A stretch of DNA of 64,000 nucleotides from an uncultured Desulfobacterales bacterium (GCA_947259495.1 CAMYLV010000016.1:44505-108504), one strand, 5' to 3'. Shown: positions 3,746 through 24,139, counted from the first letter of the stretch. The notes: a model not told the origin generated them from the sequence alone. Translations and numbers: made by a program.

Positions 3746-3758
3746 AACCTTAATTAGC

Positions 3759-5455: not shown

Positions 5456-5462
5456 TCTCGTT

Positions 5463-7972: not shown

Positions 7973-8040
7973 GGAAATTCAGAAGCAACTAATATGGGCT
8001 TATACCCAAATCGATGGGGTTTAGTCAATCATAATCGAGA
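7973..8040 (+). repeat. Island-boundary direct repeat, copy a
   Basis: The core TTATACCCAAATCGATGGGGTTTAGTCAAT (8000-8029) is identical 30/30 to 25788-25817. It also resembles 22998-23040. Confidence 0.75.
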
Positions 8041-8101
8041 ATAACGATGGGTGGTGATTTACTGAAAGACTGTCGAAAAAGTTCAAACATTTAGTTAACA
8101 T

Positions 8102-8497
8102 CTATTTTAATATTGCGTTCTGAATATACCCTTGCGTTTTACGGGGGTAAGGTTTTCGATGATTTAGACTAAATCTGCGTTCTGACCGTATTTTTCTTGC
8201 TACTTGGCTTCTTCGGTCAAACCCTTTTCTACGGTCCCTGCCCAATCTTTTTTCTGGGAAATAAGTTATACAAAAAAATTTCCGCCTATCCTTTCCTGAA
8301 CGGGTTCCACCATTATCTGTCAGCTTTAATTTCCTGGTCGCCAATATCTGGTCTTTTTTAAGTACACTAATGATATATTTCAATTTTTTCCGAATTGTTT
8401 TGGCATGCATTTTTTTATGTTTGGATAAAACGTAACCACAATATTGACATTTATGCATCCCTTCTTGCGGTAGCTTACATCTTGGACAGTTTTTCAT
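8102..8497 (-). CDS. Zinc-ribbon protein with basic [DE]RR-repeat tail
   Basis: N-terminal CPRC...CQYC. Repeated GKDRRK, GRDRRKGFDRR and SERR motifs. The motif is shared with 24140..24355. Confidence 0.5.
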   Translation of the reverse strand: MKNCPRCKLPQEGMHKCQYCGYVLSKHKKMHAKTIRKKLKYIISVLKKDQILATRKLKLTDNGGTRSGKDRRKFFCITYFPEKRLGRDRRKGFDRRSQVARKIRSERRFSLNHRKPYPRKTQGYIQNAILK

Positions 8498-9110
8498 TTT
8501 TGCTAATGCTTTTTTTAAAAAGAGAGGGTATGATTTTCCACTAATTGAGGCTAACTCTACTACCTGATTACCTTTCTAATAATGGCAGAGATGACGATCA
8601 AAACCAATCCAAGCAATATCATCGACATAGTTTCTGGCTCCAAAATAGGTGGTGTTTGGATAAACTGTCAGTGTTACTTCTGAATTTGAAAAGGGAATTG
8701 GATTTGTGACTTATGAGGAGAAAGTTAAAATTTAATTCAATTTCATTAAATGCCTGAAAATCTATTCAGCCACACGATGAACCACAAAAATTCGAAACTC
8801 AAATTCAATTAAGCAACGGTAGGATTAATTAAATAAAAATGGTAAAGGATGTCAAGTAAAAAGCTGAGAGCTAATAAAAATTTAACAATATTAACAAATA
8901 GTTATGTAGTAATCTAAATATATAGTTATATTGTTTTCTTTGGATAAAGAAATTTTCTATATTGCATTAAATGAAAATTCAAATTTATACAGGGCTTTTA
9001 GATGCCTTGATTAGCTCCTCTTAGCGGACTATCATCTTCCTCTTTTTGAGCAACAGGCTGTATAATCAAACCACAGATACATTGAGAAGCTACCAGTTAT
9101 CACAATAAAG

Positions 9111-9181
9111 GAAATTATTGCAGATACCAAATGGATATCACAGGAATTTTAGCGCTCTGATAGTTGTACTTTGTTGGAAGT
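9111..9181 (+). repeat. Island intergenic repeat family, copy C1
   Basis: Matches 19584-19654 at 66 of 71 positions (GAAATTATTGCAGATAYCAAATG.ATATCACA.GAATTTTAGCGC.CTGATAGTTGTACTTTGTTGGA.GT). Confidence 0.75.
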
Positions 9182-9366
9182 ATAAAAGGTTTTGGAATTG
9201 CAAAGAAACCCGCGATACACAGAAAAAGCGCAAGGTTTAGCAGTGATAAAACAGACTTAACTTGACAATTGCAAATAATAGGTAATGCGTTCTCTTCTGG
9301 GGTCATTCAACAATTTTAAGAAGGTATCATTTACCTGCTTTTCCAGATGCTCCGTTCAGATTATCA

Positions 9367-9876
9367 CTACTTCTCGATAACCATTGTGCCAGCCATTTTA
9401 TCGCCTAGTCTTACCCCTTTCTCATCAGAGAAGATCTTAATAATTTCGATGATAACTAGGATAAAAACAGCAATTCCAATCAGAATATCAATGATCCAGC
9501 CAAGAATTGGTATGAATAAGAAGAACATCATCATGGGACCAAGAGCGAACATCCAGTTTCTTTTCGCAGATGCAGCATAATCGATCTTAGATGTTGGGTC
9601 TTCAATATTTACTACAGATAGTTGCAGCAATTTCTTCCCAATACTTTTATACTCAAGAGCTTCGATAGGTAGAGCATCTCGAAAGAGCATATAAAAAGCC
9701 CCAATAATTCCACCAACAAAAGGTATAAACCCTACAATTATAGAAGCCACAGCATCGATGACAAATGCTATTATCCGCTTAACTGGGTCAGCTTTTGTTA
9801 GTGTGGCATTATTGATCTTTGCTTCATTGGTTTCAGGTTTCTCCTCTTTTGCCTGGACTTCTTTTTCCTCGTTCAT
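9367..9876 (-). CDS. RDD-family membrane protein
   Basis: KRIIAFVIDAV...LFRD...LGDKMAGTMV with 3 hydrophobic segments. The ATG at 9876 follows GGGAGGA. Confidence 0.65.
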   Translation of the reverse strand: MNEEKEVQAKEEKPETNEAKINNATLTKADPVKRIIAFVIDAVASIIVGFIPFVGGIIGAFYMLFRDALPIEALEYKSIGKKLLQLSVVNIEDPTSKIDYAASAKRNWMFALGPMMMFFLFIPILGWIIDILIGIAVFILVIIEIIKIFSDEKGVRLGDKMAGTMVIEK

Positions 9877-10029
9877 AAGACATCCTCCCTGCTGAATACT
9901 TTTTTGTGGACGATTTAAAGGCAATCTCAAAAATGCATCTAACGCCCAATGGCCCACGGATTGTTCCCCAGAATTGAAATGCTCATTTCTCGTGGCAAGA
10001 TGTGGCTCAATTGTCTTTGACCCAATTTC

Positions 10030-11565
10030 CTAGCTTTTTTTATTTAAGCGTTTTATTTCATTCTGCCAGTACTTCATAATATTAGACCCCATAGAGCCAG
10101 CAGCAGTATTAATTTCTGATTTGATATTCTCCTCCATGTTGAGAGGGGTAAATTTAACAGTACCTGTTGCCGGCGAAGCGACAGTTTGTCCTGAGGCCAT
10201 GTCAAATGCCCTGACGGAATAGGCCACCGTTGTGAGCTCCTGGATCCGCCCATAGTATTTTAGCTTCATAGCTCCAGCACGACGTATTTTCGCCAAGAGC
10301 AATATATTCGCCTTATGTTTCGGAACAAATTGTTTGATAGTATACCAAGTCATTGGCAAATCGCCATATTGCGCTTTTTCCATAAGTACGGGTATTTCAG
10401 CAATAGAAATTACTCTCAAACCGCTATCAATCAAACATGTTTCAAGGTGGGCATGAAAAATCGGAATCACGTTTTCATCCCCCGAGACCACCACCAGTGC
10501 GGTAGGAACTTTTGGTAATACCGGGACTACCTGTTTTTTCGTTTGATCGGTATGCGCTTTCAATTGCTCAAGCTCCCCACGTTCATGCTCAATTCTGTCC
10601 GCCTCAGCAAATAAGTGTTTTTTCTCCGCTTCCGGTTCAGGCTCTGCTGTAATGTATTGACTGAATTGGACCGGACGCTTTAATACAAATACAAAATCCC
10701 CCTTGTCCAACTTTGGGTTGTTAATTTTTCCAAATTGGGGATGCTGGGCTTTGTGGGAATAATTGATTACTTTTTCCTGAAGGTATGAACCAAGTTCCTC
10801 TCCGGTGACATAGCCGTCCCGATTGAAATCGGCATAGCCATCCTTGATACCCTGGATAAAACAGATCTTAAACACCGATCGATCGGGCACTTGCTCGTTC
10901 TCTCTGCCTGCGGTAATAAACTCCCTGACCGGTGCGGCGATTTTTTCCTCGATATATTCTGTAGGCGCAGCCCGCACCATGGTAAAGATTGCACCAGAAA
11001 AACATGAATCAAAAACCATCAACACATGCTTGGCCCGGATACGTTTGGCTACGGTTTCAATTTGACGCATATCGATGGCGCGCCGCATAAAGTTTGTTTC
11101 ATCTTGAGTCGGGCGAGGGGCGTCCACCGGAACGATGTAGCCTAATTTTGTACCGTCGGCTTCTTCGAGTGTATGACCATGACCCGAGAACCAAAAAAGA
11201 ACACCCTTGTCTTTTACCTTGCCGGGGCCCGTTATCAGCTTATTCAATGCGTTATCCAAACGGTCCCAATCAGGGTCTTCAAGCAAGTCAACCTGCCAAC
11301 CCATCTCTTTGAGTGTGATGGCAATCTCGCGGGCATCATTTACTGGATTGGGTAGTCTGGGCCAACCGGCTCTGTAATCTGAGCAACCCACTATCAGTGC
11401 ATAATAACCAGAGTAAAGTGATATCTGCTGGGGAGAACCTGAATGGGTCTTGGCCTTAACGAAGATGCCTCTGGAAGTAGCATATATAGGAAGTGTAACG
11501 AACACAAAACTGATGACAATTAAAAATAGACAAGCACCCAGAACTCTTGTTTGACTGAAGATCAT
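10030..11565 (-). CDS. Caspase-like (peptidase C14) protein with N-terminal signal/anchor and uncharacterised C-terminal domain
   Basis: A catalytic His/Cys dyad context is present (FWFSGHGH and MVFDSCFSG). The N-terminus is hydrophobic. Confidence 0.8.
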   Translation of the reverse strand: MIFSQTRVLGACLFLIVISFVFVTLPIYATSRGIFVKAKTHSGSPQQISLYSGYYALIVGCSDYRAGWPRLPNPVNDAREIAITLKEMGWQVDLLEDPDWDRLDNALNKLITGPGKVKDKGVLFWFSGHGHTLEEADGTKLGYIVPVDAPRPTQDETNFMRRAIDMRQIETVAKRIRAKHVLMVFDSCFSGAIFTMVRAAPTEYIEEKIAAPVREFITAGRENEQVPDRSVFKICFIQGIKDGYADFNRDGYVTGEELGSYLQEKVINYSHKAQHPQFGKINNPKLDKGDFVFVLKRPVQFSQYITAEPEPEAEKKHLFAEADRIEHERGELEQLKAHTDQTKKQVVPVLPKVPTALVVVSGDENVIPIFHAHLETCLIDSGLRVISIAEIPVLMEKAQYGDLPMTWYTIKQFVPKHKANILLLAKIRRAGAMKLKYYGRIQELTTVAYSVRAFDMASGQTVASPATGTVKFTPLNMEENIKSEINTAAGSMGSNIMKYWQNEIKRLNKKS

Positions 11566-11864
11566 TTGTCCCCCTCTTTTATGTTATTATAGAAGAGTTT
11601 TGCCGAACTAAAAAATCTTAAAAGGACAAATTTGTCTTGATAACAATCTTATAGTCTATTAAACTGACAAGGTCAATTGAATCGTAAAAATAAACCTCAA
11701 AAGCTCGATTACCACACCTTGTGGCACAACTCGATATCATACTCGAATGTTGGCAAGCTATCTGCAACTACAACAAGTCCCTAATACCTGAATCTGAGCC
11801 GCTTATTTATTTGTCGATCAACTTCAATCGAGCTGACTATCATTTAAAATGAAAGGGGGAGATT

Positions 11865-12881
11865 ATGAAAAGGCGTAAATGTTGGGCTGCAATTGGATGT
11901 ATCGTAATGTTTTTTGTAGCGGGCCTGCTTTTTCATGGATGCAAAACGATTCAGCCTAAGCCCGAAGCGAAAGTCACTGAAGCGGGGGGACCTTCTATTG
12001 AAGAAGCCCAGAGTGCAGCCTACGGCGGCCCTATGGCAAGAATTGCCGTATCGCGATTCACTGACAAGACCGGAAAAGGTTGGTGGAGCCGTGATGTCGG
12101 CGATGGTATGGCTGACATGTTGGCCACGGCGCTTTTCCACACCAACCGCTACATTGTGCTGGAGCGGCAGCAACTGCGAGATGTTCTCCGGGAGCAGGAT
12201 CTGGGGGCATCCGGAAGAGTCAAACAGCAAACGGCCGCACCTATCGGCGAAATTGAGGGAGCAGAGCTTTTGATCACTGGCGCTGTGACCGAGTTTGAAG
12301 GTGCCGCTTCCGGTACCAAGGGCGGTTTAGGCGGCTGGGGAAGCGGAGTGGTTGGAGCTGTTTTAGGGGCTTATAAAAAATCGCACATGGCGATTGACGT
12401 GCGTGTCATCGATACAAAGACCTCCCGAATTGTAGCTGTTACCTCTGTAGAAGGATCTGCAACGGACATCGGTGGCTTGGGGGCTTTAGGAGGCGCTGTC
12501 GGTGGTGGAGCCTTAGGGGGTGCTTTGGGTGGTTGGTCAAAGACCCCAACCGAGAAAGCGTTGCGAATCTGTATAAAAAATTCGGTTGATTTTATTGTCA
12601 GTAAAACACCTGCCCAATACTACCATTTTGGCTCTGGTGGAACGGCAGTTCAACCTACATCAGCAACGCCGGCATCGACTGCTCCTCAGTCACAGGAGCC
12701 GTCTGTTCAGGTGACAGGTTCTTCGGTAAACATTCGTTCCGGACCGGGAACAAGTCACGATATAATCGGCAGTGTGAGGCGCGGAGATCGCCTGGTTCTC
12801 CTGGGCGAAAGCGGAAATTGGTTTCAGGTGCGCCTGCCCAATGGAAAAGTAGGATATATTATCAATAAGCTTTGTAAATAA
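11865..12881 (+). CDS. CsgG-like lipoprotein with C-terminal bacterial SH3 domain
   Basis: Lipobox LLFHGC. CsgG-like IAVSRFTDKTG...LERQQLRDVLREQDL...LLITGAVTEFE. Gly-rich loop. SH3b-like VNIRSGPGTSHDIIGSV...GNWFQV. Confidence 0.7.
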   Translation: MKRRKCWAAIGCIVMFFVAGLLFHGCKTIQPKPEAKVTEAGGPSIEEAQSAAYGGPMARIAVSRFTDKTGKGWWSRDVGDGMADMLATALFHTNRYIVLERQQLRDVLREQDLGASGRVKQQTAAPIGEIEGAELLITGAVTEFEGAASGTKGGLGGWGSGVVGAVLGAYKKSHMAIDVRVIDTKTSRIVAVTSVEGSATDIGGLGALGGAVGGGALGGALGGWSKTPTEKALRICIKNSVDFIVSKTPAQYYHFGSGGTAVQPTSATPASTAPQSQEPSVQVTGSSVNIRSGPGTSHDIIGSVRRGDRLVLLGESGNWFQVRLPNGKVGYIINKLCK

Positions 12882-12976
12882 GCCCTCGAGCTAGCTTTGT
12901 TGTTTTGCCTATCGCGTTTTTCCATCTTGTGTCAAACAGGGAGCCCGAACAATGCGGCTAAGTTGTGATTTAATTT

Positions 12977-13024
12977 AAATATCACAGATATTTTCAGAAT
13001 TGATATTTACGACATTGTTGGAGT
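12977..13024 (+). repeat. Island repeat family, partial copy C7
   Basis: AAATATCACAGATATTTTCAGAATTGATATTTACGACATTGTTGGAGTT aligns to the right half of C1, including the GTTGGAG box. Confidence 0.45.
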
Positions 13025-13043
13025 TATCTGTAGACCAGCGGTG

Positions 13044-13075
13044 AATAAAAAGGCAGAGCCAATATTGACTCTGCC
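13044..13075 (-). terminator. Rho-independent terminator candidate downstream of 13116..13595
   Basis: On the minus strand: GGCAGAG-N10-CTCTGCC followed by TTTTTATT. Confidence 0.55.
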
Positions 13076-13115
13076 CCAAAAATCTATAATGACCGACCTC
13101 CTATATATTTTTAAT

Positions 13116-13595
13116 TTATTCAGATTTAGGCAATTCAAATGTCCCTTTTATTATAATGCAATTTTGAAAAGTTCCCGGAGCGATAGATTTGCCACGCTGG
13201 AGCATACTCCATGTACCACCGCCTTTAATGTTCTCCCATTTGCCGGTACCCAATAAAAATTTCCATTCACCACCATTACCATTACCATCCCATCTTACAA
13301 CATTTATATCCCCATTAAGATACATGTATTTACAATACCCGCTCTGCTTTATTTCATCACCTGTTCTTTCGAATATACCCGCACCTATTTCGGAGACATT
13401 GTGAAGCATTTCCGAATTCGTATTGCTTCGAAGCATTCCTTTTAGTTCAAGACCTATAATCATCAATTCTTTGCTATTGTGAACCATAGTGGCTGTCCCT
13501 GATCTACAGGCCATTGATTCGAAAGGGTCTGAAGCCTGAACGGCTGGGATGAAAACGAAAATAGCGAGAAGTGTAATTAAAAATGATCGAATCAT
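13116..13595 (-). CDS. Secreted hypothetical protein
   Basis: Signal peptide MIRSFLITLLAIFVFIPAVQA. AAAGGAGG lies upstream of the ATG. Confidence 0.6.
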   Translation of the reverse strand: MIRSFLITLLAIFVFIPAVQASDPFESMACRSGTATMVHNSKELMIIGLELKGMLRSNTNSEMLHNVSEIGAGIFERTGDEIKQSGYCKYMYLNGDINVVRWDGNGNGGEWKFLLGTGKWENIKGGGTWSMLQRGKSIAPGTFQNCIIIKGTFELPKSE

Positions 13596-13698
13596 AGAGC
13601 GCCTCCTTTCATTTGATTATCAAAAATGTTTTTCTTCAAAAGGCTATTCAGAATCCCAACAGGATTGACAACCTCTTGTTGGGAGAAGGGTTGGCAAA

Positions 13699-13779
13699 AT
13701 TTGAGTGGTTTCTCCATTGAATCTTTACCTGATTGTTAGGTTAAAGTTTAAGGGAAACCAGTTTCTATTTCAGCAGGAA
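13699..13779 (-). promoter_or_regulatory. Conserved leader motif, copy U1 (candidate cis-regulatory RNA or operator region)
   Basis: About 88% identical by eye to 17547-17626. It lies 104-184 nt upstream of the 13595 start. Nested stems: GGTTTC/GAAACC and CTTTAACCT/AGGTAAAG. Confidence 0.5.
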
Positions 13780-13963
13780 AAGTATTTAGAAGTTGAGAAT
13801 CGATTCGACGATGAGTAGGAGTAGCCGATAAGAATTTATTAGAACTAACAACACGTGTGAGATTGAGCTTCAGATGAGTTCAATATTAAAGTTCAAATAT
13901 TATGGACACCATGTAATGTCAATAAAATTCAAGTAAATATATTGAGAATACATGGGTTTTGCC

Positions 13964-14031
13964 GAAATTTCAGATACCATTTGAGTATCACAGGTTTTTT
14001 TGGATTTCAAATGTTTGAATACGTTGGAGAT
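13964..14031 (+). repeat. Island repeat family, copy C3
   Basis: CAGATACCATTTGAGTATCACAGG...CGTTGGAGAT has the same box order as C1/C2. It lies directly 3' of the S41 gene. Confidence 0.55.
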
Positions 14032-14041
14032 ATTCCAAATT

Positions 14042-15037
14042 TTAATCTGAATCATTCCGATTTATAATATCCTCTTGAATCAAGTTCTTGATTCTTTCCA
14101 TTTCAACATCTTTACCAAGTCGATAATCATCTATTGTTCGAGATACCAGAATATCCGGTATTACTCCTCGATCTGGATTTTCACCTGGCAGTGTGTAAAT
14201 AGCTAAAGGAATAGAACCTTTTAATCTACTGTTTGAGAGCTTTGCCGTTACTGGGTCGCTATTAAAGCTTATTCTACCGGCAGTTTCTCTCCCAATTACT
14301 AACCCAAATTCATTGGCCTTGAAAACTGCTGCGAAAACCACCCCAGCAGAAAATGTTTTTTCAGAAATTAGAAGAAATACTTTCCCTTTAAATTTATTCG
14401 ACGCCTCATAAGGCACTCTCATTCTATGATTAACAGCTTCTATGTAGTCACCATTCTTTGCATTAGCTAAATGATTGCCAGCTTTTCCAGCATAGATACT
14501 GTTACGCATTATTTCACTAACTTTAAACTCGAATAGTTTTGCAATTTGGTATTCTGAAGGTGTTAAATTATCAAGAAGATAGAATCCCCAATAACCACTC
14601 CCGCCGCGATTTTCCCTAATGTCAATAACCAAATAAGAAGACTCAGCATATTTATTGAAAAATGAGTCTATAAATTGTTTATAGCTCTCAGCTTTTCCAT
14701 AACTGAAACCTGGCATTTTTAGGACTGGAATTTCTTCATCTTGGATAAAAAACGAATATTTACTGTATTTGTTGTCATGCTGAGTTACAGTTTTGTTAAA
14801 CTCTTTTAAAGTAACAGATTTGAGTTCTGTGATCCTAACTTTTGAGTCGAGTTTATATTTAACCTTCCAAGGCGGTGTGACTTTCAAATACTTAAGAAGC
14901 AGTATATGAAAATAGTCCTCAAAAAAAGACCATTTAACATGATCTAAAGAGGTATGAAATAATTGAGAGCACTCTTTAAACAGTGAAGTGAACCCATCCG
15001 ATTGCACAAAAATTAGTTGAGTGTTAAGAGGGGTCAC
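14042..15037 (-). CDS. S41-family (tail-specific-like) serine peptidase
   Basis: LVIDIRENRGGSG and ISEKTFSAGVVFA (Ser nucleophile context), plus GRETAG. The start is uncertain (GTG) and no signal peptide is evident. Confidence 0.75.
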   Translation of the reverse strand: MTPLNTQLIFVQSDGFTSLFKECSQLFHTSLDHVKWSFFEDYFHILLLKYLKVTPPWKVKYKLDSKVRITELKSVTLKEFNKTVTQHDNKYSKYSFFIQDEEIPVLKMPGFSYGKAESYKQFIDSFFNKYAESSYLVIDIRENRGGSGYWGFYLLDNLTPSEYQIAKLFEFKVSEIMRNSIYAGKAGNHLANAKNGDYIEAVNHRMRVPYEASNKFKGKVFLLISEKTFSAGVVFAAVFKANEFGLVIGRETAGRISFNSDPVTAKLSNSRLKGSIPLAIYTLPGENPDRGVIPDILVSRTIDDYRLGKDVEMERIKNLIQEDIINRNDSD

Positions 15038-15132
15038 ACTTTTTTAAAAAAAATCGAACAGATGCTGTGAATGACGCTTGAGGTTGAGAATTGCAAATTA
15101 TTTGACTGAAATCCAAATACGACAAAGGTACC

Positions 15133-15208
15133 GATACATTGAGAATACATGCATTTTGGCATTTTTACAGATACGAAATGGATGTCTGGATTTGTAAGCT
15201 CACTGGTA
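15133..15208 (+). repeat. Island repeat family, degenerate copy C6
   Basis: GATACATTGAGAATACATG...CAGATACGAAATGGATGTCTGG shares its left boxes with 13940-13990 and 9078-9145. Confidence 0.35.
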
Positions 15209-15569
15209 TCTGAATTGTTTGTAAAATCCAACAGAAAATATCGCATTAAATTTCAGCCATTACATAGGAGAATAGTACGATAATCAGTGCGCTTTTTCAA
15301 AATTTATTTTTAATATTAATAATTCTTTATATGAGCATCTCGGCCTGCGACAATTTTAAAAATGGGTGTCAATTCGCTTCTCCTGTCAGAATTTTTTTGG
15401 AGCTGTTGTGGATATTTCAATGGCAAGGAGTTTGAGCGTAAGAACAGGAAGGCGGGTCACTTTGATAACAAGATTTTCAATGCTTGCCATAGAAGCCATA
15501 CAATGAGGATTATAATCCAACAGATAATTGTTACGTGGAGTATTTTTAACATTCTGACTACTGAATTTC

Positions 15570-15803
15570 CTAACTGAATATAAGTTTATCTAATTGATGT
15601 TCTGAAATATGGGCAAGACGGCCAATCTCTTGTGCTTGCATAATAAGTTCAAAGGGAGGCTCCTTGCCCTTGTAGCGAAGTTTTGAAATTTTTAAGACTA
15701 AATTCAAATAATCACGTTTGAGTTTCATAAAATTTTTGTCGTCTGTTTCCATTTTGATTTTCTGCAAATTTAGGTGTTTTGGGTGACCCCCAAGCGAGGC
15801 CAC
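15570..15803 (-). CDS. Small helical hypothetical protein (start uncertain, possibly Met at 15752)
   Basis: Supported by the ORF only. No family was recognised. Confidence 0.3.
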   Translation of the reverse strand: MASLGGHPKHLNLQKIKMETDDKNFMKLKRDYLNLVLKISKLRYKGKEPPFELIMQAQEIGRLAHISEHQLDKLIFS

Positions 15804-15955
15804 TCACGGACAAAAGCCATGGGCATGGCGCTTATTGATCATGGTATGTCCATATAAAATATCGGGAATTTTTGGTTAGAACTTGAATTAGATTTGCCAA
15901 CGATCTGATCAACCGGGGCATTTAAAGGTATTGGGTATTGGGGGGATGTTATTGG

Positions 15956-16507
15956 GGGGTCGGGCCGCGCTAACAATTCGACATTATACGACATACATCA
16001 TAAAATCAAGCCGTTTAGGCCTTAGAAGCCCCATTTTAGGGGCAAAATCACCCTTCTAAGAAATAGTTTAATTGACTTCAAAAGTCATATGCGGTGGCTG
16101 CCGGCTTAGTCCAAAGATGAATTGAAGATAGCGCATCATTAATGGATTGAGGAGGAATTGAAAAAATCACAGCTGGTTCGCCAGAGCAAGGGGACGCAAA
16201 GCATTGCTGTTGGAGAAAAATCGTTTGTTGAACAAATCAAAAACCGTCTTGGTATTCGTTCTAAAGGTTGGAAGATTCTCGAAGATGAAGGTGACTACCA
16301 GTTATGTGACCGTCAGACCGGTTATTGCGACAGCGCCCAATTTATTAATTCAAATTCTTTTTATTGGGATTTAGACAATAAACCCGCAGACTTCCCTATT
16401 CCTTAAAGAGCCCATTTTACCCATAGAATGGCATTGCTAAGCCCAAAAATCGGTCCTTTTTTTAACTCTTTTTATTAATTATCAGACACTTACTGCGGCC
16501 CGACCCC
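15956..16507. mobile_element. Decayed small element bounded by perfect 13-bp inverted repeats around a COG1943 transposase remnant
   Basis: GGGGTCGGGCCGC (15956-15968) and GCGGCCCGACCCC (16495-16507). The outer flanks are word repeats (GGTATTGGGTATTGGGG and CATTTTG x4). Confidence 0.45.
16158..16406 (+). pseudogene. C-terminal remnant of an IS200-like/COG1943 (Y1, RAYT-type) transposase
   Basis: QSIAVGEKSFVEQIKNRLGIRSKGWKI...YQL...NSFYWD matches the conserved C-terminal tail of this family as I remember it. The catalytic N-terminal part is absent. Confidence 0.55.
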
Positions 16508-16552
16508 ATTTTGCACCATTTTGCATTTTGCATTTTGCTATAGTTGAAATGA

Positions 16553-16849
16553 TTACCAGAGGCCTACAGCATAAATATTGAACTCTGTTTTGGTTCGAAG
16601 ATGCTTCTTGATATTTTCATAAAGTTCGATACGACGTGGGTCCCCAGTCCAGTGCTGCCAGCGCTCTAAAGATGTCCACCTGCTTATTACCAAACATTCC
16701 TCCGGGCGATCTAAGTGAAAAAATGTTTCGCCTGAAATATAACCTGGTTGTCTGACTGCAAGAGCTCTTAATTCTATGATGTGAGGCAAGAGTATCTTCG
16801 CATTGACCCCGTTCTTTGTTACATGCTTTATTAAAACTCCAATCGCCAT
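16553..16849 (-). CDS. Antibiotic-biosynthesis-monooxygenase (ABM) fold protein
   Basis: The protein is 98 aa. PGYISGETF...VISRWTSLERWQHW is typical of the ABM domain. GGAGG lies before the ATG. Confidence 0.65.
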   Translation of the reverse strand: MAIGVLIKHVTKNGVNAKILLPHIIELRALAVRQPGYISGETFFHLDRPEECLVISRWTSLERWQHWTGDPRRIELYENIKKHLRTKTEFNIYAVGLW

Positions 16850-16954
16850 GTCCCCCTCCCCTCTTTAGTTTATATTTGATACTAAAGGAAATTTAATTTT
16901 TGAGGTATGGATGAAATTCATTGAGTCAGATGTGAAACTGATACACACAACTTA

Positions 16955-17401
16955 TCACATATTGAAGATAGATGATAAACAGCAGACCCTACAAACATGT
17001 GTCTTCGCGAAGGAAAAGGGCAAACTCTGACTTTTGATGTATTCAACTGCCCCACTCAACTCCTCCAACCACCGACTGAGACTATAACCAATACCATGCA
17101 GGTAAGCACTAATGCCAGCAGACTGGAGAGCTGCATAAGAAGCTTCCTGGATTTGGTCATCGTCTATTCCACTGAGCCGTTACTGCTCAGTATGGAAGGG
17201 CGTTCAGTACTGACAACGGCCAGCAGCTGCAGCTCCAAAAGCGACTAATGCTTTATCACGTGCAGGCAGCTTGCTGTCGCTAAGGAACCATGCAGTAAGT
17301 CGCCACTGGTGTTCGAGCTGCGAATCCGGCAGTCCATCAAGCCAGCCCGGCACTCCGCCTAGTGTCTGAGAAATTTGAGCAAGGATTTCTTGTCTCGTCA
17401 T
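16955..17401 (-). pseudogene. AhpD/carboxymuconolactone-decarboxylase-family gene with in-frame TGA at the CxxC position (candidate Sec) and an in-frame TAA 8 codons later
   Basis: MTRQEILAQ... (ATG 17401 after AAGGAG). ...AAAAGRCQY-TGA(17204-17206)-TPFHTEQ-TAA(17180-17182)-RLSGIDDDQIQEASYAALQSAGISAYLHG. The family pattern C-x-Y-C-x3-H...G.t.eEi.EA continues in frame through both stops. Confidence 0.5.
17171..17191 (-). promoter_or_regulatory. SECIS-like hairpin 12 nt downstream of the in-frame UGA
   Basis: RNA ACUGAGC-AGUAACG-GCUCAGU: 7-bp stem, 7-nt loop with G at loop position 2. The loop G is about 24 nt from the UGA. Confidence 0.35.
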
Positions 17402-17546
17402 TGGATTTTTCTCCTTTTGTGGATAGGGTGCGATTCGCATCAATGGTTTACAATAAATAGCACCAAAACAGGTCAGGTTTGCTGACTTAAACGAGTGGAT
17501 TACACTCCTAACAGAAAAAAATTTTTTTAGGAGCCGGGTAGGCACA

Positions 17547-17626
17547 TTTTGAGAGGTTTCTCCATTGAAGCTTTACCTTATTGGTAGGTTAAAGTTTACA
17601 GGAAACCAGAATCTATTGCAGTGGAA
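17547..17626 (-). promoter_or_regulatory. Conserved leader motif, copy U2
   Basis: Lies 146-225 nt upstream of the AhpD-like ATG. See 13699-13779. Confidence 0.5.
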
Positions 17627-17888
17627 TGTGTCGCTTAGAGTGAGAGGATAAATTCATGATGAAAGCTAATTTCAGGGCAAAATGAAAAAGCGCTGTTTTC
17701 CTGTTGCCACATTGTGGTATTTTTGTCAAGCTAATTTTGGATCATTGTAGGTCAGGTCTTAAATCGAGAGGATTATGAATTATCATTGAACTGGCATTGA
17801 AAATGATGTTGATGAGAAGGGTGAAGAGGAATTTTATTTTCTTTGAATAAGTTCGTTTTTATTTTTCCAGTTATTTTAACTTGAATTG

Positions 17889-19538
17889 TTAATTCTGCAT
17901 TTTAATGATCACCGAGGTTATGTCATCTTCTATTCTTGACTCACTTATAAATTTATCCAAGATGTCAAAAATTGCATCCAATATTTGTGTTGCGTCTGAA
18001 GATGAGTTTTGTCGAATTGCAGATAGGATTGGCTCTTTGCCTAACATCTCTCCATTTTTATTGCGCGCCTCCCAGATTCCATCTGTACTGAGAAAAACGA
18101 TTTGACCATTTGAAAAATCGGTTTCTTTATTATCCTCGTAGACCCATTCGGCATCCAAACCAAGAGCTATTCCCGATCCTCCAAGTTCACTGAATGAATC
18201 TGAGCCAGGATCATAAACAATGGCGGGATCATGTCCCGCCCGCACCCAATCAAGGCGTTTGGATTCTGTATCAAGAGTTAAAAAAAACATTGTCATAAAT
18301 TGCCCGGAATCTTCAACATCTTTAACCAACTGACGGTTCACATCAGAAATGATATTGGCCGTGCTGCCCGGTAAAAATACCCGCTGCCGCAATGAAGAAC
18401 GAACAGTGGCCATAAGTAATGCAGAAGAAATACCATGCCCTGAGACATCGCCAATCGCAACCCCAATTTTCTGCTCATCATTATCTTCAATAGATATAAA
18501 ATCATAATAATCACCACCGGTTTCATCGCAGTAAACGCTTTTTCCGGCTATATCGATCCCGTTAACCTTTATATTACTTTTTGGAAGAAGATTTTGTTGA
18601 ACCTCCTTTGCTAAATTAAGAGACTGCTGCATTCTTTCACGTTCCTTCAGACCCGCGGTCATTTCATTGATCACATCACCCGTATACCCAATTTCATCAT
18701 TAGAGGTAACTTGCACTTTTTTGTCAAAGCGGCCGTTTCTTACCCCCCGCAGGGTAATGATGATCTCCTTGAAGGGTATCGTCAGATTTCTGCCTACCAG
18801 CATCGTCAAACATATGCCAAAACCGATAAATATGAATGTATTAGTGAATATAACAGGCCTTAGCTGCTGTATTGCCAATGCCGGGTCCGAGTATTTTAGG
18901 GAGATTCTATGAAAAAGATGCAAAATTGTTAAGAGGGGAATCAGATTGCAAGCAAAAAGCATTGCAACCAGCCGGGTGCGGATCCGGATGCGCAGGGTCT
19001 TCGGGATGGCAGTAAGTCCACCTTCCGGGAAAAAATGCGGTGCCAGTCGCTTTTGTGAAATATGCTCCAACAAAAAAAAAGCAACAATCACGGTGATAGA
19101 GCCAGTGCTCAGGCTTAATAACAACGCGCGTTGCATCAAATCCGATCCTAAACCAAGGCTCCAGTAAATAGCCGTCCAAATTATAGCCGCCAACATCCAC
19201 ATACTCAAATCCAGGGCCATGAGAAAAAAGGGTTCGTTGAGCACTTTTTGGCGGGCCCTGTTCTCCAGTTCCGCCGACACTTCTGAGCGTTTGAATTTGG
19301 CATTTAGATATAACCGAATGGGTCTTTCATATAGCAGAGTCATCACCACGACAAATAAAAAGGCCAATGGCGTAAAAATTGTATCCATCACATCGACAGC
19401 AGTAAATTTCCATATATCTGCAGGCAACGGTTCCGCCCTGAACATCAGCTTATGAACAAATACAACGGAAAATAAATTGGCAAATGCATTCGCAAAAATC
19501 ATTTCGTTTTTTAGGTGGAAAAGTTTAAATTTTGTCAT
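17889..19538 (-). CDS. Membrane-bound PP2C/SpoIIE-family phosphatase with HAMP linker
   Basis: Multiple N-terminal TM segments. HAMP-like IPFKEIIITLRGVRNGRFDKKV. PP2C motifs GGDYYDF, GDVSGHG and DGIWEA. Confidence 0.85.
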   Translation of the reverse strand: MTKFKLFHLKNEMIFANAFANLFSVVFVHKLMFRAEPLPADIWKFTAVDVMDTIFTPLAFLFVVVMTLLYERPIRLYLNAKFKRSEVSAELENRARQKVLNEPFFLMALDLSMWMLAAIIWTAIYWSLGLGSDLMQRALLLSLSTGSITVIVAFFLLEHISQKRLAPHFFPEGGLTAIPKTLRIRIRTRLVAMLFACNLIPLLTILHLFHRISLKYSDPALAIQQLRPVIFTNTFIFIGFGICLTMLVGRNLTIPFKEIIITLRGVRNGRFDKKVQVTSNDEIGYTGDVINEMTAGLKERERMQQSLNLAKEVQQNLLPKSNIKVNGIDIAGKSVYCDETGGDYYDFISIEDNDEQKIGVAIGDVSGHGISSALLMATVRSSLRQRVFLPGSTANIISDVNRQLVKDVEDSGQFMTMFFLTLDTESKRLDWVRAGHDPAIVYDPGSDSFSELGGSGIALGLDAEWVYEDNKETDFSNGQIVFLSTDGIWEARNKNGEMLGKEPILSAIRQNSSSDATQILDAIFDILDKFISESRIEDDITSVIIKMQN

Positions 19539-19583
19539 GATACTGCTCTCCTACAAGCTGATAATTGAATACCAGCATGGAAC

Positions 19584-19654
19584 GAAATTATTGCAGATAT
19601 CAAATGTATATCACAAGAATTTTAGCGCCCTGATAGTTGTACTTTGTTGGAGGT
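19584..19654 (+). repeat. Island repeat family, copy C2
   Basis: Matches C1 (9111-9181) at 66 of 71 positions. It fills most of the 144-bp spacer between two minus-strand genes. Confidence 0.75.
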
Positions 19655-19682
19655 GTCTGCATTTCAATTATATGATGACTGG

Positions 19683-21143
19683 CTATTGGGGAAGTTGGTT
19701 CCCATACCATTTCCAATGTCCGTTATCTTTAATTAGCTTACTGCCGGTCATAAAGAGGGCTTCAAAATATTTATCTTTAAGCCAAACATCAATTTTAGCC
19801 TCATCGCCTTCAGGCTCAAACTTGGTGATGATAATTTTAGCCTCAGAAGTATAAGATAAAGTTCCTTCTAAAAATTTTAAAGCCATTTGTTTGGTAACGC
19901 CATAATGAAGAAATCGATCCGAAATTAAATCGGCCATTGTCACCACATCTTTATTAAATCTAGCTTGATTATAATCTGTTATGAATGCTTTTACATCAGT
20001 GGGCAATTCCACGGCTTTTAGTGGTTTTTTCGGTGGTCTTTTCCTTTGAACAGAGACTGCAACTAAATCAAATAAAGGACTATAATGAATTGAAGTTGGG
20101 GGATGAGGCTGGGCTGTTTTCGATGTTACAGCAATAACAAGGTCAAGTTCCGGAACGACCACTATAAATTGCCCCCGCCTTCCCCAAGCCCTGAAACTGC
20201 TGCAGCCATCGACTTTCTTCACCCACCATTGATACCCGTATCCAAACGAACCATATATTGGCGAGCTGAAAGTCTTTATCTGTTGATCGGTGGATTCTTT
20301 CACCCAATATTCAGAGACAATAGATTGACCGTTCCAATATCCATTATTCAAGTACAGGAAACCGATTTTTGCTAAATCTCGTGCTGAGAGGCCCAAACCG
20401 AAACCGCCAATGTAGTATCCTTGTGGGTCTTGATGCCAATAGGCTGATTGTATCCCTAACGGTTCAAAAAGGTTTCTCTTTGCAAAATCCAAGGTGCTGG
20501 ATTTAGTCGACTTGGACAGAATTATGGACAGAAGATGTGATGTTGATGAATTGTAATTAAATACATCCCCCGGATTTTTTTCCTGCGGAAGTTGAATCGT
20601 GAATTTTGCCCAGTTCGAGGAAGTATACCAGAACCGCATTACAGGTCCCCGATCGTTCCACCTAAAACCTGCACTCATTGTCAAAAGGTGTCTAAGACTG
20701 ATCTTCTTTTTCCTCGGATCAAGGTCCTCTGTGATATATTCAGGAAAAAATTCGGTTAGTTTTTGATCCACGCTTTTAAGATAACCTTTGTCCAGTGCTA
20801 TACCAATTAGGGCTGAGGTAACACTTTTGGTAACTGAATGAACGACAGCGTATTTTTCAGGGCTTCCCCAAGAGTAGTATTTCTCAAAAACTAAATAGCC
20901 GTTCTTAACAACCAACAAACTGAAAGCATCGGGAAGTCTATTTTGGACAAATTCGTCCGCTATCCTTAGCTTAGCAGAATCCATACCCTGAATCTCCGGG
21001 GTAGAAGTCCTCCAACCGCTGGTAGGCCAGTATTCGCGCTTTTTTGGTTGTTCGCAAAATGCATATTCAGTCAAGAAGGCAAAAAGGGAGAAAGTAAGAA
21101 TACAAAATGTTTTTTTACTATAACTCAAATTAAATATTTTCAT
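19683..21143 (-). CDS. Beta-lactamase-fold serine hydrolase with C-terminal extra domain
   Basis: SxxK motif HSVTKSV. N-terminal signal-like segment. The ATG at 21143 follows AAAGGAGA. Confidence 0.8.
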   Translation of the reverse strand: MKIFNLSYSKKTFCILTFSLFAFLTEYAFCEQPKKREYWPTSGWRTSTPEIQGMDSAKLRIADEFVQNRLPDAFSLLVVKNGYLVFEKYYSWGSPEKYAVVHSVTKSVTSALIGIALDKGYLKSVDQKLTEFFPEYITEDLDPRKKKISLRHLLTMSAGFRWNDRGPVMRFWYTSSNWAKFTIQLPQEKNPGDVFNYNSSTSHLLSIILSKSTKSSTLDFAKRNLFEPLGIQSAYWHQDPQGYYIGGFGLGLSARDLAKIGFLYLNNGYWNGQSIVSEYWVKESTDQQIKTFSSPIYGSFGYGYQWWVKKVDGCSSFRAWGRRGQFIVVVPELDLVIAVTSKTAQPHPPTSIHYSPLFDLVAVSVQRKRPPKKPLKAVELPTDVKAFITDYNQARFNKDVVTMADLISDRFLHYGVTKQMALKFLEGTLSYTSEAKIIITKFEPEGDEAKIDVWLKDKYFEALFMTGSKLIKDNGHWKWYGNQLPQ

Positions 21144-21302
21144 TTTTTTCTCCTTTCTGCTGAAAATATGACTCACAAAACATGTTATTTTGTCTTAAAC
21201 ATCATAGTGATGCTAATTTGCGATGAGAATAACAAAGTTTTGCCAATTTTGCCGATATGATTTGGATATATGATACTTACCACGCAATCAACTGTCTTTT
21301 CT

Positions 21303-21377
21303 AATTTCTGTCATCTGCGATTAAAATAGAATATCACAAAAAATTTCAGAACTGTTATCTGCCGTTTAGTTGGAGGT
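21303..21377 (+). repeat. Island repeat family, diverged copy C4
   Basis: ...AATATCACAAAAAATTTCAGAACTGTTATCTGCCGTTTAGTTGGAGGT shares the ATATCACA box and the GTTGGAGGT box. Confidence 0.45.
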
Positions 21378-21637
21378 ATTACGAATTTCCAAATCGAAAA
21401 GGTTTGATACAAATAGTTTGGCCTTATCACAAAAATGACCCAAAAAGGCCAACCACAACATATGGCAGGATTCTCCGCAGATTAACGGCGGCGGGCGTTG
21501 AGTACGCCTCGCCACAAACTTTTGTGGGGCCTTGCGCAGCAGAAAAAAGTCTCATTTCTGAATCGGACACTCATTAGTGCCAAGATCCTTTCGGGGATGA
21601 GCACTAATTAAAACCTTCATTTAGAAACATAACCAGT

Positions 21638-22660
21638 TTAGGCTGTCATATTGACTATTGTCCGACCCTTGTGTTTGCCTTGTAACATACGGTCGATGGC
21701 CTGATCCAGATCGACCAGGGTAATTTCTTCCACGACCGTTTCCATCATTGGGATTTTCCATTCATCGGCGAGTTTCTCCCAAGTCTTGAGCCGGTTCGGC
21801 ATCGGGCAATTCTGGGAATCGATACCCACGAGGCTGACCCCACGCAGGATGAAGGGATATACATTGATCGGCAACTCAGGTGATGCCACATTACCGCGGT
21901 GGCCAGGATATCTCCTCCTACCGTGTCGATGCTGCCTGCCCAGCGAGACTTGTGAAGCGGACGACCACTTTGATCTGTGGCCTCTTCGATGCTGATAATA
22001 CGCTGTGCGCCGATTTCTTTTAGATATTCCGACTCATCTACCAAACCATTGACGGCAACGACCGTGTAACCCAATTTTGACAAAATTGCCACGGCAATGC
22101 TGCCAACGCCGCCGCTGGCGCCTGATACCAGCACCTCACCATGTTCCGGCAAAATGCTCCCATGAACGGTCAGTTGAAAGACTGACAGGGCCGCCGTAAA
22201 CCCGGCCGTTCCATAGCACATGGCCTCTCTTGACGTCAGTCCCTTGGGCAGGGGAACCACCCATTGGCCGGGTACCCGAATATATTGGCCAAACCCCCCT
22301 GCCGTGTTCATGCCTAAATCATAACTGGTGAACCCGAATATATTGGCCAAACCCCCCTGCCGTGTTCATGCCTAAATCATAACTGGTGACGATAACATCA
22401 TCTCTGGGTTTAAGGGCGATATCAGTGCTTTCCACCACCACACCTGCTGCGTCGATGCCGGGTGTATGGGGATAGCTGCGTGTTACGCCTTTATTGCCGC
22501 TGGCTGATAACGCATCTTTGTAATTCAAAGATGAATAGTGCACCTCGACCACAACGTCTCCCGGGGGAAGGTCGTCTATGGTTTTGTTGAGGATCTGACG
22601 CGTGTATTTTTTGTCGTTAGTTTCTTCTACTACCAAGGCCTTAAATAATTCATCTGTCAT
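21638..22660 (-). pseudogene. YhdH/AcuI-type NADPH:quinone (acrylyl-CoA) oxidoreductase, disrupted twice
   Basis: Three collinear ORF pieces (22319..22672, 21745..22350, 21638..21889). SYDLGMNTAGGFGQYIRV is encoded twice. The first break is a 58-bp duplication. The second break, near 21890, removes part of the conserved region before PFILRGV. Confidence 0.8.
22274..22389. repeat. Perfect 58-bp tandem duplication inside the oxidoreductase pseudogene
   Basis: 22274-22331 and 22332-22389 are identical when read base by base. 58 is not a multiple of 3, so the duplication shifts the frame. Confidence 0.9.
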
Positions 22661-22778
22661 TTTAACCTCCACAAGTGTCTGGGTTATAGATATACTTTTT
22701 GCCGAACGAGCTCAATTGCTGATCTGGGTTAAATATTTCACAAGTGTACTAAGAGTCATGTTTAAATTTTGCACGGAT

Positions 22779-22841
22779 TTATCCGATGACATCTGCGCTG
22801 AGAATCGCTGCGAGCTTACGCTTAAAACCTTCATCTGCCAT
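22779..22841 (-). pseudogene. 20-codon N-terminal remnant of a class III adenylate/guanylate cyclase-type protein
   Basis: GGAGG-N7-ATG, then MADEGFKRKLAAILSADVIG*. KLAAILSADVVGYS is the usual start of the cyclase homology domain in such proteins. Confidence 0.4.
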
Positions 22842-22945
22842 GTGCCACCTCCGTTTATAAGGTTTTAAACTTTGGAATTCAGTATGTTGATTATTCACAG
22901 AAACGCAGTATCAGACGAGCAACAAGATTCGATTCAAGGATTTGC

Positions 22946-23040
22946 GAACCATTTCAGGTCAGGTGGAATAGAAGCTTCAGAAATTGTTAAATAGACTTTA
23001 TAGACAAATGTATGGGATTTAGTCAATCATTATTGAGAGT
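22946..23040 (+). repeat. Island direct repeat, internal copy b
   Basis: Its right part matches copy a at about 36 of 43 positions. Its left part (GAACCATTTCAGGTCAGGTGGAATAGAAGCTTCAGAAATTGTT) parallels 25736-25778. Confidence 0.65.
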
Positions 23041-23141
23041 TCGGAAAGGTGCTGATAATTTACAAAAAACCAAATATCAGTCAGTTGCAGATTTATTGAG
23101 ATTACATTCAAAATCACAAAGTTCCAGATATCAAACGCAAT

Positions 23142-23190
23142 GAAATTATTGCAGATACATAACAGATACCATAATGTATACCTTAATTCG
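23142..23190 (+). repeat. Island repeat family, rearranged copy C5
   Basis: GAAATTATTGCAGATAC, then a reiterated CAGATACC box. It is immediately upstream of the recombinase remnant. Confidence 0.4.
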
Positions 23191-23222
23191 AAAAAAATAC
23201 GCACCGATGCTATTCGGTGGTA

Positions 23223-23387
23223 ATGGAGAAATTCTGTGAGGTGTTTGGAGATCATCAACTTGGTGGGCCTACTGTTGATGATGTTATGGGCTTCCTAACT
23301 CAGGTAACGGATGGATGCAAGACTCAAACAAAACGCATCGGCTCTGCCCACCTTTCTGCATTTTTCAATTTCACTGAAATTATTTAA
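23223..23387 (+). pseudogene. N-terminal (SAM-like domain) remnant of a tyrosine recombinase/integrase
   Basis: A 54-codon ORF MEKFCEVFGDHQLGGPTVDDVMGFLTQVTDGCKTQTKRIGSAHLSAFFNF has the pattern of integrase N-terminal domains. The catalytic domain is missing. Confidence 0.45.
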
Positions 23388-24139
23388 ATCTTAACCGGGC
23401 ACTATTGAGGGGCGGTAAGTGTTAACCTCTATTATTTAATTATTTTATTCGTTTTGTAAAATCTATGGTTCAGGTAATGATCAATCTTGTAAGGTTTTGT
23501 GCCAACCTTATTTTTAATCATTTCATCAACCAGCATATTTTGATTATTCGTTAAAAAGATAACTTTTTGCCTGGAAAGGGCTCCGCAACTTCTCAGGTTT
23601 GTAGATCTCGAGGCTTGCAGGCCTGCTTTTGACTGGTTTTTAGAAATACATTTCGATATATAATTCTTATAGCATTTATCTAACAATCCAATATTAAAGC
23701 GTGGCACCAGGTTTTGATATATCTGAGTGTAGTGAAAATATTGCCAACACCCTTGAACTTGTGAAACATTGCATTATCATTATTGGCGACTTCTGGGATG
23801 TTTGTGCATTTTTTCTGCTGAGAAATTAACAACGGCATCTTGGAAGCTACATCCATTAGGGGTGGTTCAAATTGAACTGCCCCTTTTTTTGTCCATATTG
23901 ACATTCTATCGTCCCCAAGAGAATACAATCAAAAAGGCCGGGCCGACCAGGCCTGGTAGGTAAACCCTGTTGCCATCTGCCGTGCAAATGCTGTAACCTC
24001 ATCGTAATATTCTGTCTCTCTACAATTGACTGGGCAATATGTTGCCTATTTCATCTTTCTCCTCCTCCTTAACGCGGTGGCCCATATGATTGATGGGCCG
24101 CCCGATAGAAATTGTATCAAACTGCACAGGAGGTCAAAA

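Follow-up and report, generated by a model that had tools for sequence, protein, structure and literature searches.

Co-oriented repeats containing an Xer-like recombinase gene as putative joints of a gene-cassette array in marine sulfate-reducing Desulfobacterales

In an uncultured Desulfobacterales bacterium, co-oriented copies of a repeat element separate the genes of a low-GC island. The window that was analysed comprises 64,000 nucleotides of one strand (GCA_947259495.1, CAMYLV010000016.1:44505-108504), and positions are counted from its first letter. The island extends from ~7.2 to ~25.8 kb and has a GC content of 36-44% compared to ~50% in the flanks. Its genes are functionally unrelated and lie mostly on the minus strand. 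All copies of the repeat are located on the plus strand between these genes, and none is found elsewhere in the 64 kb. The last copy is accompanied by the remnant of a tyrosine recombinase gene. Judged from the comparison with related loci, the repeats appear to form the joints in a chromosomal array of gene cassettes that resembles an integron and is served by an Xer-like recombinase and double-stranded palindromic sites.

The cassette genes on the minus strand code for an RDD-family protein (9367-9957), a caspase-like C14 peptidase (10030-11565), a hypothetical protein of 159 aa (13116-13595), an S41 peptidase (14042-15037), an ABM-like protein (16553-16849), a CMD-like fragment (17204-17545), a SpoIIE phosphatase (17889-19538), a beta-lactamase fold protein (19683-21176), and a Zn-dependent alcohol dehydrogenase (ADH; 21638-22672). 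An ankyrin protein and a PilZ protein are also encoded in the island. The only long island gene on the plus strand is a CsgG-like/SH3 gene (11865-12881). The ADH gene is broken by a frameshift that results from an exact 58-bp tandem duplication (22274-22389); a relative that is 96-98% identical (L100; related loci are designated by L and a number) has one 58-bp unit and an intact ADH open reading frame (ORF) of 338 aa. Exact-protein look-ups of two window proteins gave no match.

Five full copies of the repeat could be aligned without gaps over 74 nt (9114-9187, 12958-13031, 13964-14037, 19587-19660, and 21310-21383). An nhmmer profile deduced from them yielded E values of 1e-13 to 1e-17 for these five copies, and no match better than E = 0.14 elsewhere in the 64 kb on either strand. 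The pattern GAT-N10-TATCACA-N5-WTT-N22-GTTGGAR occurs five times in the window and was not found in any of 100 dinucleotide-preserving shuffles. Two further copies (15133-15208 and 23091-23190) are partial; they have kept the left box and the first palindrome and are devoid of GTTGGAG. A preliminary description of this DNA had proposed such a repeat family in uniform orientation. The repeats are genuine: one element is present in five full copies and in two or more partial ones, all of them in plus orientation. The conserved boxes are as described, and the left box ATTGAGA is seen at 9081, 13941, 15138, and 23095. For the best pair, copies 1 and 5, agreement at 66 of 71 positions had been reported; 68 of 74 positions were found to be identical, and five of the six mismatches fall into the 71-nt span. 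The distances of the element to the stop codons of the S41 peptidase (12 nt; stop at 14042) and of the beta-lactamase fold protein (~28 nt; stop at 19683) were likewise reproduced. Two GTTGGAG strings at 25730 and 25752, which had been listed alongside the element boxes, proved to be part of a promoter/leader repeat; their presence is coincidental, because they are not conserved among the other members of that repeat.

Related loci were fetched by means of a pattern taken from the window element. The scan of sediment metagenomes gave at least 120 stretches, many of them at contig ends. An iterated profile then identified 214 copies in 136 sequences, which comprise the window and the fetched loci from Desulfobacterales metagenome-assembled genomes (MAGs) and sediment metagenomes. 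In this set, adjacent copies have the same orientation at a ratio of 77:1 and a median spacing of 1.7 kb. Among species-representative genomes, the pattern occurred at 25 loci; 19 were confirmed by the hidden Markov model (HMM), all of them in MAGs of Desulfobacterales or of a "delta proteobacterium", and several of these MAGs have matches on three or four contigs. Six genome matches in Bacteroidota, Saccharimonadales, and others were not recovered by the HMM and were judged to be chance hits, as were four matches on viral contigs, which lie in coding sequence and have an HMM E value of ~0.5. At the family loci, 73% of the coding sequence is on the strand opposite to the element. For 139 of the 152 copies that have a neighbouring ORF on the side of GTTGGAG, this ORF is on the opposite strand with its stop codon facing the box. 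The same gene-element-gene-element layout is seen in L085, L109, L103, L083, and L049. The layout of the window is therefore the rule for the family, and, as judged from the pattern-fetched loci, the array system is common in the genomes of marine sulfate-reducing Desulfobacterales.

The element is modular and is built from 21-bp sites of the type xxGATAT-N7-ATATCxx, in which two inverted GATAT arms enclose a centre of 7 bp. Two of these sites, BL and BR, are directly oriented and bound each joint; two more of the same build, S1 and S2, are located inside. The general forms are xxGATAT-ATTGAGA-ATACxx for BL, xGATxx-GTTGGAG-ATATCx for BR, CAGATAT-N7-ATATCTG for S1, and GTGATAT-N7-ATATCAC for S2. 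The long form of the element has ~270 nt, and the order on its strand is BL (GTGATAT-ATTGAGA-ATACATG), a spacer of ~20 nt, S1 (CAGATAT-GAAACGG-ATATCTG), a module x, S2 (GTGATAT-AAAACGA-ATATCAC), ~25 variable nt, and BR (TGATAT-GTTGGAG-ATATCA). Three contents were observed between S1 and S2, namely a recombinase gene coding for 278 aa, the module x of 115-130 nt, or nothing, such that S1 and S2 are fused. Module x consists of the two flanks of the recombinase gene with the ORF removed. The short form has ~110 nt; the short copies of the window (copies 1, 3, and 5) carry one hybrid site that combines the left arm of S1 with the right arm of S2, which is the outcome expected from a deletion between S1 and S2. 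The reciprocal S2/S1 hybrid was considered as proof of recombination between S1 and S2 and was dismissed: because the arms are palindromic, it cannot be distinguished from the reverse complement of the hybrid.

The best-conserved columns of the element are GAT (96-98%), TATCACA (89-99%), TTTT, and GTTGGAG (91-97%). In the S2 palindrome, the inner three pairs are invariant, and the outer three vary in the left arm only; among the family copies, neither compensating changes in the right arm nor covariation were found. Since the changes are one-sided and uncompensated, the conservation of the S2 arms has the pattern of a protein-binding sequence and not that of a selected hairpin. A search against Rfam gave no match at gathering score in the whole window and none at E ≤ 1 in the region 7000-26000. 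Given the lack of Rfam, tRNA, and tmRNA matches and of covariation in the palindrome, an RNA element was ruled out. For 24 copies with clear ends, no target-site duplication was detected (direct repeats of at least 4 nt above expectation), and the element ends have only GATAT/ATATC in common. When read in the direction of the cassette genes, module x contains a hairpin of 14 pairs that is followed by a T run; among the terminator-like calls on the gene strand of L109, it ranks first. Downstream of the hairpin, the sequence TTGACA-N18-TAGGTT (TAAATT in the recombinase-bearing version) looks like a promoter by eye. In the window copies, scans for sigma-70 promoters and terminators did not exceed the expectation from shuffles; a clear terminator-like signal is confined to the hairpin of the long form. 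At several loci (L118 ~2948, L142, L140 ~2736, and L146 ~9710-9900), another repeat with the terminal hairpin GTGCGCCACGAGCGCAC abuts GTTGGAG(G/A)TA; it has the appearance of an independent insertion element with the BR site of the joint as its target.

The seven junctions of the window, all on the plus strand, can be assigned to these forms. Copy 1 (9074-9185) is a short form with the BL site CAGATAC-ATTGAGA-AGCTACC (9074-9094), the hybrid site CAGATAC-CAAATGG-ATATCAC (9121-9141), and the BR core GTTGGAA (9173-9179). Copy 2 (12907-13028) begins with the remnant of an x module (12907-12962), which is followed by the S2 palindrome GTGATTT-AATTTAA-ATATCAC (12965-12985) and the BR core GTTGGAG (13017-13023). 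The short copy 3 (13934-14034) comprises the BL core ATTGAGA (13941-13947), a hybrid site (13971-13991), and the BR core GTTGGAG (14023-14029). The partial copy 4 (15131-15190) has the BL core ATTGAGA (15138-15144) and an S1-like site CAGATAC-GAAATGG-ATGTCTG (15169-15189); S2 and BR are missing. Copy 5 (19558-19657) is again a short form, with a BL-like GATA-ATTGAAT-ACC (19560-19573), a hybrid site (19594-19614), and the BR core GTTGGAG (19646-19652). In copy 6 (21221-21380), a degenerate BL/S1 part (21221-21284) precedes S2 (GCGATTA-AAATAGA-ATATCAC, 21317-21337) and the BR core GTTGGAG (21369-21375). Copy 7 (23088-23172) is the left half of a recombinase-bearing junction; it contains the BL core ATTGAGA (23095-23101) and an S1-like site CAGATAC-ATAACAG-ATACCAT (23152-23172) and has lost S2 and BR. 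A possible degenerate fragment was detected on the plus strand at 16926-17024 as a weak nhmmer match to positions 51-149 of the long-form model, i.e. to its S1/x part.

The truncated recombinase gene that belongs to copy 7 lies on the plus strand at 23190-23387; its ORF of 54 aa spans 23223-23387, and the homology begins at 23190. Over 63 aa, this stump is 71% identical to the N-terminal SAM-like domain of the 278-aa protein of L121, and it is ~73% identical to the versions of L065 and L026. Intact homologues of ~278 aa are encoded in L121, L065, L026, and L058. The recombinase remnant that had been suspected at 23223 is thus a truncated tyrosine recombinase whose intact homologues reside inside the same element. 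In L121, L065, L058, and L148, the gene is located between positions ~107 and ~135 of the long-element model, and the hairpin, S2, and BR start ~46 nt past its stop codon. The gene is on the strand of the element, opposite to the cassette genes. The L121 protein shares 67% and 76% identity with the recombinases of L162 and L163, respectively; at these two loci, hairpin, S2, and BR directly follow the recombinase stop codon, and six to eight genes on the opposite strand are located upstream.

The intact recombinase matches the Pfam family Phage_integrase (PF00589) with E = 1.9e-18 and, weakly, PF13495. The best NCBIfam model is XerA with 105 bits, which is below the cut-off of 220; the scores for XerD (49 versus 330 bits) and XerC (45 versus 335 bits) are below the cut-offs as well. 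The best solved structure is XerA from Pyrococcus (4a8e, E = 1.5e-15); the recombinase aligns along its length with this protein and with XerD from E. coli (1a0p). According to our reading of these two alignments, the recombinase has the Arg, Lys, His-x-x-Arg, His, and Tyr motifs. The protein is therefore best described as a simple, Xer-type tyrosine recombinase that resembles XerA and XerD. The family is large: 3559 clusters were found at E ≤ 1e-20, mostly on contigs of 1-2 kb, as is expected of a multi-copy repeat that breaks assemblies. With a stump as its only recombinase, the array of the window can, if at all, be rearranged only by recombinases encoded at other places of the genome.

After approximately codon 19, the recombinase genes contain a run of seven to nine A (L121 ~3450, L065, L058, L026, L059, and L148 ~5970; 23192-23198 in the window). 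The A8 allele of L121 is in frame, whereas in the A9 alleles (five loci), the full protein can be made only upon a +1 shift or slippage during transcription. The run is probably the reason why database entries often have 249 aa instead of 278 aa. By analogy to insertion sequences (IS), it may serve as a control of expression.

Comparison of close relatives shows where the arrays differ. The locus L146 is 97-99.6% identical to positions 1037-13028 of the window, and the identity ends after the GTTGGAG and TATC of copy 2. Beyond 13028, L146 codes for a PAS protein and a beta-lactamase/Ig protein of 735 aa, and the window contains the 159-aa ORF and the S41 peptidase. Relatives thus carry different ORFs beyond a conserved copy, a point that the preliminary description had raised for checking, and the break coincides with the GTTGGAG of copy 2. 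Copy 3 and its counterpart in L146 are 92% identical from BL to BR and have different genes on both sides. When all loci were compared with each other, 8 of the 58 internal ends of homology fell within -7 to +19 nt of the first G of GTTGGAG, for which we estimate a chance expectation of ~0.4, and 4 of 89 fell within -5 to +10 nt of ATTGAGA. Two pairs of loci are informative. To the right of GTTGGAG, the identity between L103 and L109 is 99.7%; to the left, their element subtypes differ. The exchange must therefore have occurred within ~12 shared bases, which are too few for homologous recombination. L086 and L109 have a gene module of 1038 nt in common that starts with BR and ends with BL; on either side, the interiors of the joints differ. 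Modules that are bounded by sites, with mosaic breakpoints at BR and BL, are also a trait of the pdif modules of Acinetobacter.

It is plausible to assume, with a probability of roughly 0.6, that the elements are junction sites at which the recombinase exchanges gene modules. Recombinase dimers would bind to the GATAT arms, two like sites would pair (BR with BR, or BL with BL), and strands would be exchanged within the conserved 7-bp centre. Such an exchange would excise, insert, and swap gene modules. Recombination between S1 and S2 would remove the recombinase gene or the x segment and leave a hybrid site. The co-orientation of 77:1, the recombinase gene inside the element, and the gene swap between relatives at GTTGGAG all support a recombinase-driven cassette array of a kind other than an integron, which had been put forward as one interpretation of the repeats. 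Several observations weigh against this assignment. The link between the recombinase and the sites is one of position. The loci were fetched by the element pattern, and the copy counts apply to these loci. Some MAGs contain single copies on large contigs. The median distance between stop codon and element is ~105 nt, so that a location immediately after the stop codon is not general. The BR arms are only 45-73% palindromic, and the promoter scan did not call the promoter-like sequence TTGACA-N18-TAGGTT of module x. At its right-hand end in the window, the array has neither a BL nor a BR site. Finally, a cassette-sized indel between L095 and L015 has untidy ends that are not at equivalent sites and are not site-specific; it was set aside as evidence.

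The preliminary description had named a decayed integron-like array among its interpretations, and some features would fit a true integron remnant, i.e. a CALIN (a cluster of attC sites without integrase) with attC sites of unusual sequence. The genes are co-oriented and of unrelated function, as integron cassettes separated by sites are, and their content varies between relatives; GTTGGAG resembles GTTRRRY at six of seven positions; the tyrosine recombinase remnant is directed away from the array; and integrons have been reported in Desulfobacterota (PMC9668308). However, no attC-type fold, no partner box, and, among the ORFs scanned, no integron integrase (IntI) were found. Single-strand folds of the five copies, calculated for both strands, were no more stable than those of shuffles (z values from -2.2 to +1.2), and no structure common to the copies was seen. 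A complementary box of the type RYYYAAC, 40-150 nt upstream of GTTGGAG, was present in 3 of 170 family copies, and the shuffled control also gave 3. BL and BR are direct and not inverted repeats. IntI is a tyrosine recombinase with an additional domain around patch III (PMC9668308). In the alignment with 4a8e, the recombinase has no such domain and no large insertion between the Arg and the His-x-x-Arg motifs. It reached 42.7 bits with the integron-integrase model TIGR02249, whose cut-off is 265, and matched only positions 17-181 of 315. Among tyrosine recombinases, the search of solved structures at E ≤ 1 returned Xer proteins only and no integron integrase. In a Pfam scan that was not exhaustive for the window, no integrase domain was detected; the scan covered the island ORFs and, between 25.9 and 59.5 kb, ten ORFs of 250-436 aa. 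For the left flank, the annotation in L146 lists no integrase. We therefore regard an integron remnant as highly improbable.

A more serious competitor, although an unlikely one, is a selfish element of the IS type. Its mobile unit would be BL-S1-recombinase-S2-BR (~1.2 kb), with the long (270 nt) and the short (110 nt) form as non-autonomous derivatives that insert site-specifically and in one orientation behind genes and accumulate in a variable island without moving the genes. This is in agreement with the 3559 recombinase clusters on mostly short contigs, which resemble assembly-breaking multi-copy repeats, with the many element matches at contig ends and the single copies on large MAG contigs, and with module x, which matches the flanks of the recombinase gene like a deletion derivative. 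The A run that frameshifts most recombinase copies recalls the expression control of IS transposases, and copy 3 and its L146 counterpart are conserved from BL to BR within different flanks. The lack of target-site duplications of at least 4 nt in 24 copies, the 77:1 orientation, and the spacing of one gene speak against such an element; moreover, gene modules recur in other contexts bounded by BR and BL, and near-identical relatives differ in gene content and not in the presence or absence of the element. A plain miniature inverted-repeat transposable element (MITE), the alternative given in the preliminary description, is likewise weakened by the missing target-site duplications, which are its signature, and by the near-uniform orientation. 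A selfish component nevertheless remains likely in view of the multi-copy recombinase unit and its gene-less derivative, and the selfish interpretation overlaps with the exchange of modules instead of excluding it. Less probable still is a shared regulatory or transcript-end module without any role in recombination, in which the palindromes would be operators or terminator elements in 3' untranslated regions, and the single orientation would be kept through the action on neighbouring transcripts. The constant polarity relative to the genes would be accounted for, as would the terminator-like hairpin on the gene strand and the sequence of the long form that we read as a promoter facing the next gene; the arms are conserved as sequence, like protein-binding sites, and other leader repeats of the island also carry promoters. 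Such a module would explain neither the breaks of homology at the 7-bp centres, nor the tyrosine recombinase gene inside the element, nor the fact that functionally unrelated low-GC genes share the element; there is, furthermore, no Rfam match at E ≤ 1 and no fold better than those of shuffles.

The island contains other repeats besides the junction elements. A promoter/leader module on the minus strand ("boundary repeat" b, 22842-23056) consists of TTGACT-N18-TATAA and a leader of ~170 nt and has sister copies at 7927-8058 and 25658-25817. Its family occurs in more than ten other loci, often upstream of genes that start with MAEEGFKRKLTAILSADV, and has no Rfam match. The "boundary repeats" had been taken for att sites of the island; this was rejected, as the repeat is the promoter/leader of minus-strand genes. 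An origin as the 3' end of the ORF 7601-8044 was also dismissed, since this ORF has no Pfam match and was judged to be unlike a real protein. Directly downstream of leader b, the minus strand retains 20 codons (MADEGFKRKLAAILSADVIG*) from the start of a cyclase-type gene (22779-22841); the body of the gene is missing. L100 contains an insert of 270 nt (3002-3291) that the window lacks at 22788-22807; versions with 78-90% identity to this insert are present in L109, L017, L084, L118, and L013. A second leader-like repeat (13676-13773 and 17524-17621; 84% identical over 98 nt) precedes the minus-strand ORFs 13116-13595 and 17204-17545; homologues were found in L064, L124, L062, L045, L085, and L125, and there is no Rfam match. 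At 13050-13077, the minus strand has a strong terminator-like hairpin with 12 pairs and a T run. It separates the 159-aa ORF stop codon from the GTTGGAG box in copy 2; the order is therefore gene, own terminator, joint.

Further differences between the window and its relatives were noted towards the left-hand side. At 7205-7215 of the window, L146 (8790-9903) and L147 hold an extra 1.1 kb that comprises a long-form element, an ORF of 114 aa, and the hairpin-bearing repeat and is flanked by the 11-nt direct repeat GAATGGTTCGC. This site is located where the conserved chromosome meets the island. The difference may represent the gain or loss of a cassette at the end of the array. At 6374-6377, L146 and L147 have a segment of 697 nt with an RRM_1 gene that the window does not contain, and a stretch of 137 nt of the window (3607-3744) is absent from both. 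No junction element is located at either of the latter two differences.

The arrays share several features with integrons, especially with sedentary chromosomal ones and with CALINs: mostly single, co-oriented, unrelated genes are separated by one conserved repeat family, the tyrosine recombinase is transcribed away from the cassettes, the repeats are homogeneous within the lineage like the Vibrio cholerae repeats (VCRs) in Vibrio, and the content of the array differs between close relatives. In contrast to integrons, the recombinase is Xer-like and devoid of the additional domain of IntI, and the sites are short double-stranded palindromic cores with a conserved 7-bp centre, whereas attC sites are folded single-stranded hairpins. 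Moreover, the presumed crossover lies close behind the gene, such that the remainder of the element comes before the next gene; the recombinase gene is part of the joint, is multi-copy, and may have cassettes on both sides; and many modules carry their own promoter or leader. The pdif (dif) modules of Acinetobacter are likewise discrete gene modules bounded by Xer-type core sites with two arms and a central region; their mosaics break at the sites, and every segment between sites behaves as a module (PMC6449649, PMC13141974). The pdif sites have 28 bp (11-6-11) and alternate in orientation, whereas the sites described here have ~21 bp (7-7-7) and are co-oriented. Modules of the pdif type use the XerC/XerD of the host and occur mostly on plasmids; here, the element encodes a dedicated recombinase, and the arrays are apparently chromosomal.

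Pairs of MITEs and autonomous elements, as well as repetitive extragenic palindromic (REP) repeats (Correia elements, or REP and bacterial interspersed mosaic elements (BIMEs) with REP-associated tyrosine transposases (RAYTs)), resemble the present element in being short, multi-copy, intergenic, and assembly-breaking. Common to them are also a gene-less derivative of a protein-coding parent and a terminator-like and possibly promoter-like content. Their enzymes are of the DDE or HUH type, whereas that of the present element is a tyrosine recombinase; here, target-site duplications are lacking, the orientation is near-absolute, and the spacing corresponds to one gene. With the Xer systems that act at dif (archaeal XerA, XerC/D, XerH, XerS), the recombinase shares protein size, domain order, and catalytic motifs, the sites share the two inverted arms around a short centre, and XerA and XerD are the best models and structures. 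It differs by its score far below the family cut-off (105 versus 220 bits for XerA), by its many copies, and by being embedded in a repeat element instead of being a single housekeeping gene with one dif site. Full-text literature searches retrieved no description of this array system, which does not prove that none exists. The IntDes group (PMC8138268), which originates from Desulfovibrio, belongs to a different recombinase family.

Exchange of gene modules at the joints thus remains the interpretation that we prefer. A more far-reaching proposal is put forward tentatively and as the less probable of the two: the arrays might constitute a new class of gene-capture platform, widespread and active in marine Desulfobacterales, that is either an independent analogue of integrons or a pre-integron state. 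In such a platform, small Xer-like recombinases encoded in the joints would shuffle promoter-bearing modules, with the 21-bp GATAT-N7-ATATC sites as substrates of a canonical double-strand recombination.

The textbook example of a system that stores and reshuffles single genes is the integron; the dif modules of Acinetobacter are the other well-described site-bounded gene modules compared here. If the proposal is correct, the arrays would be a third cassette system, with a recombinase of another lineage and with double-stranded sites, and cassette arrays would have evolved more than once. Both the small recombinase and the short, defined sites might be developed into a new tool for recombination. 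A double-stranded, Xer-like state has been proposed as the origin of integron integrases (PMC4792948), and the arrays would be a natural example of this state. For the sulfate reducers of marine sediments, they would represent a large, unannotated pool of mobile accessory genes that is invisible to tools such as IntegronFinder.

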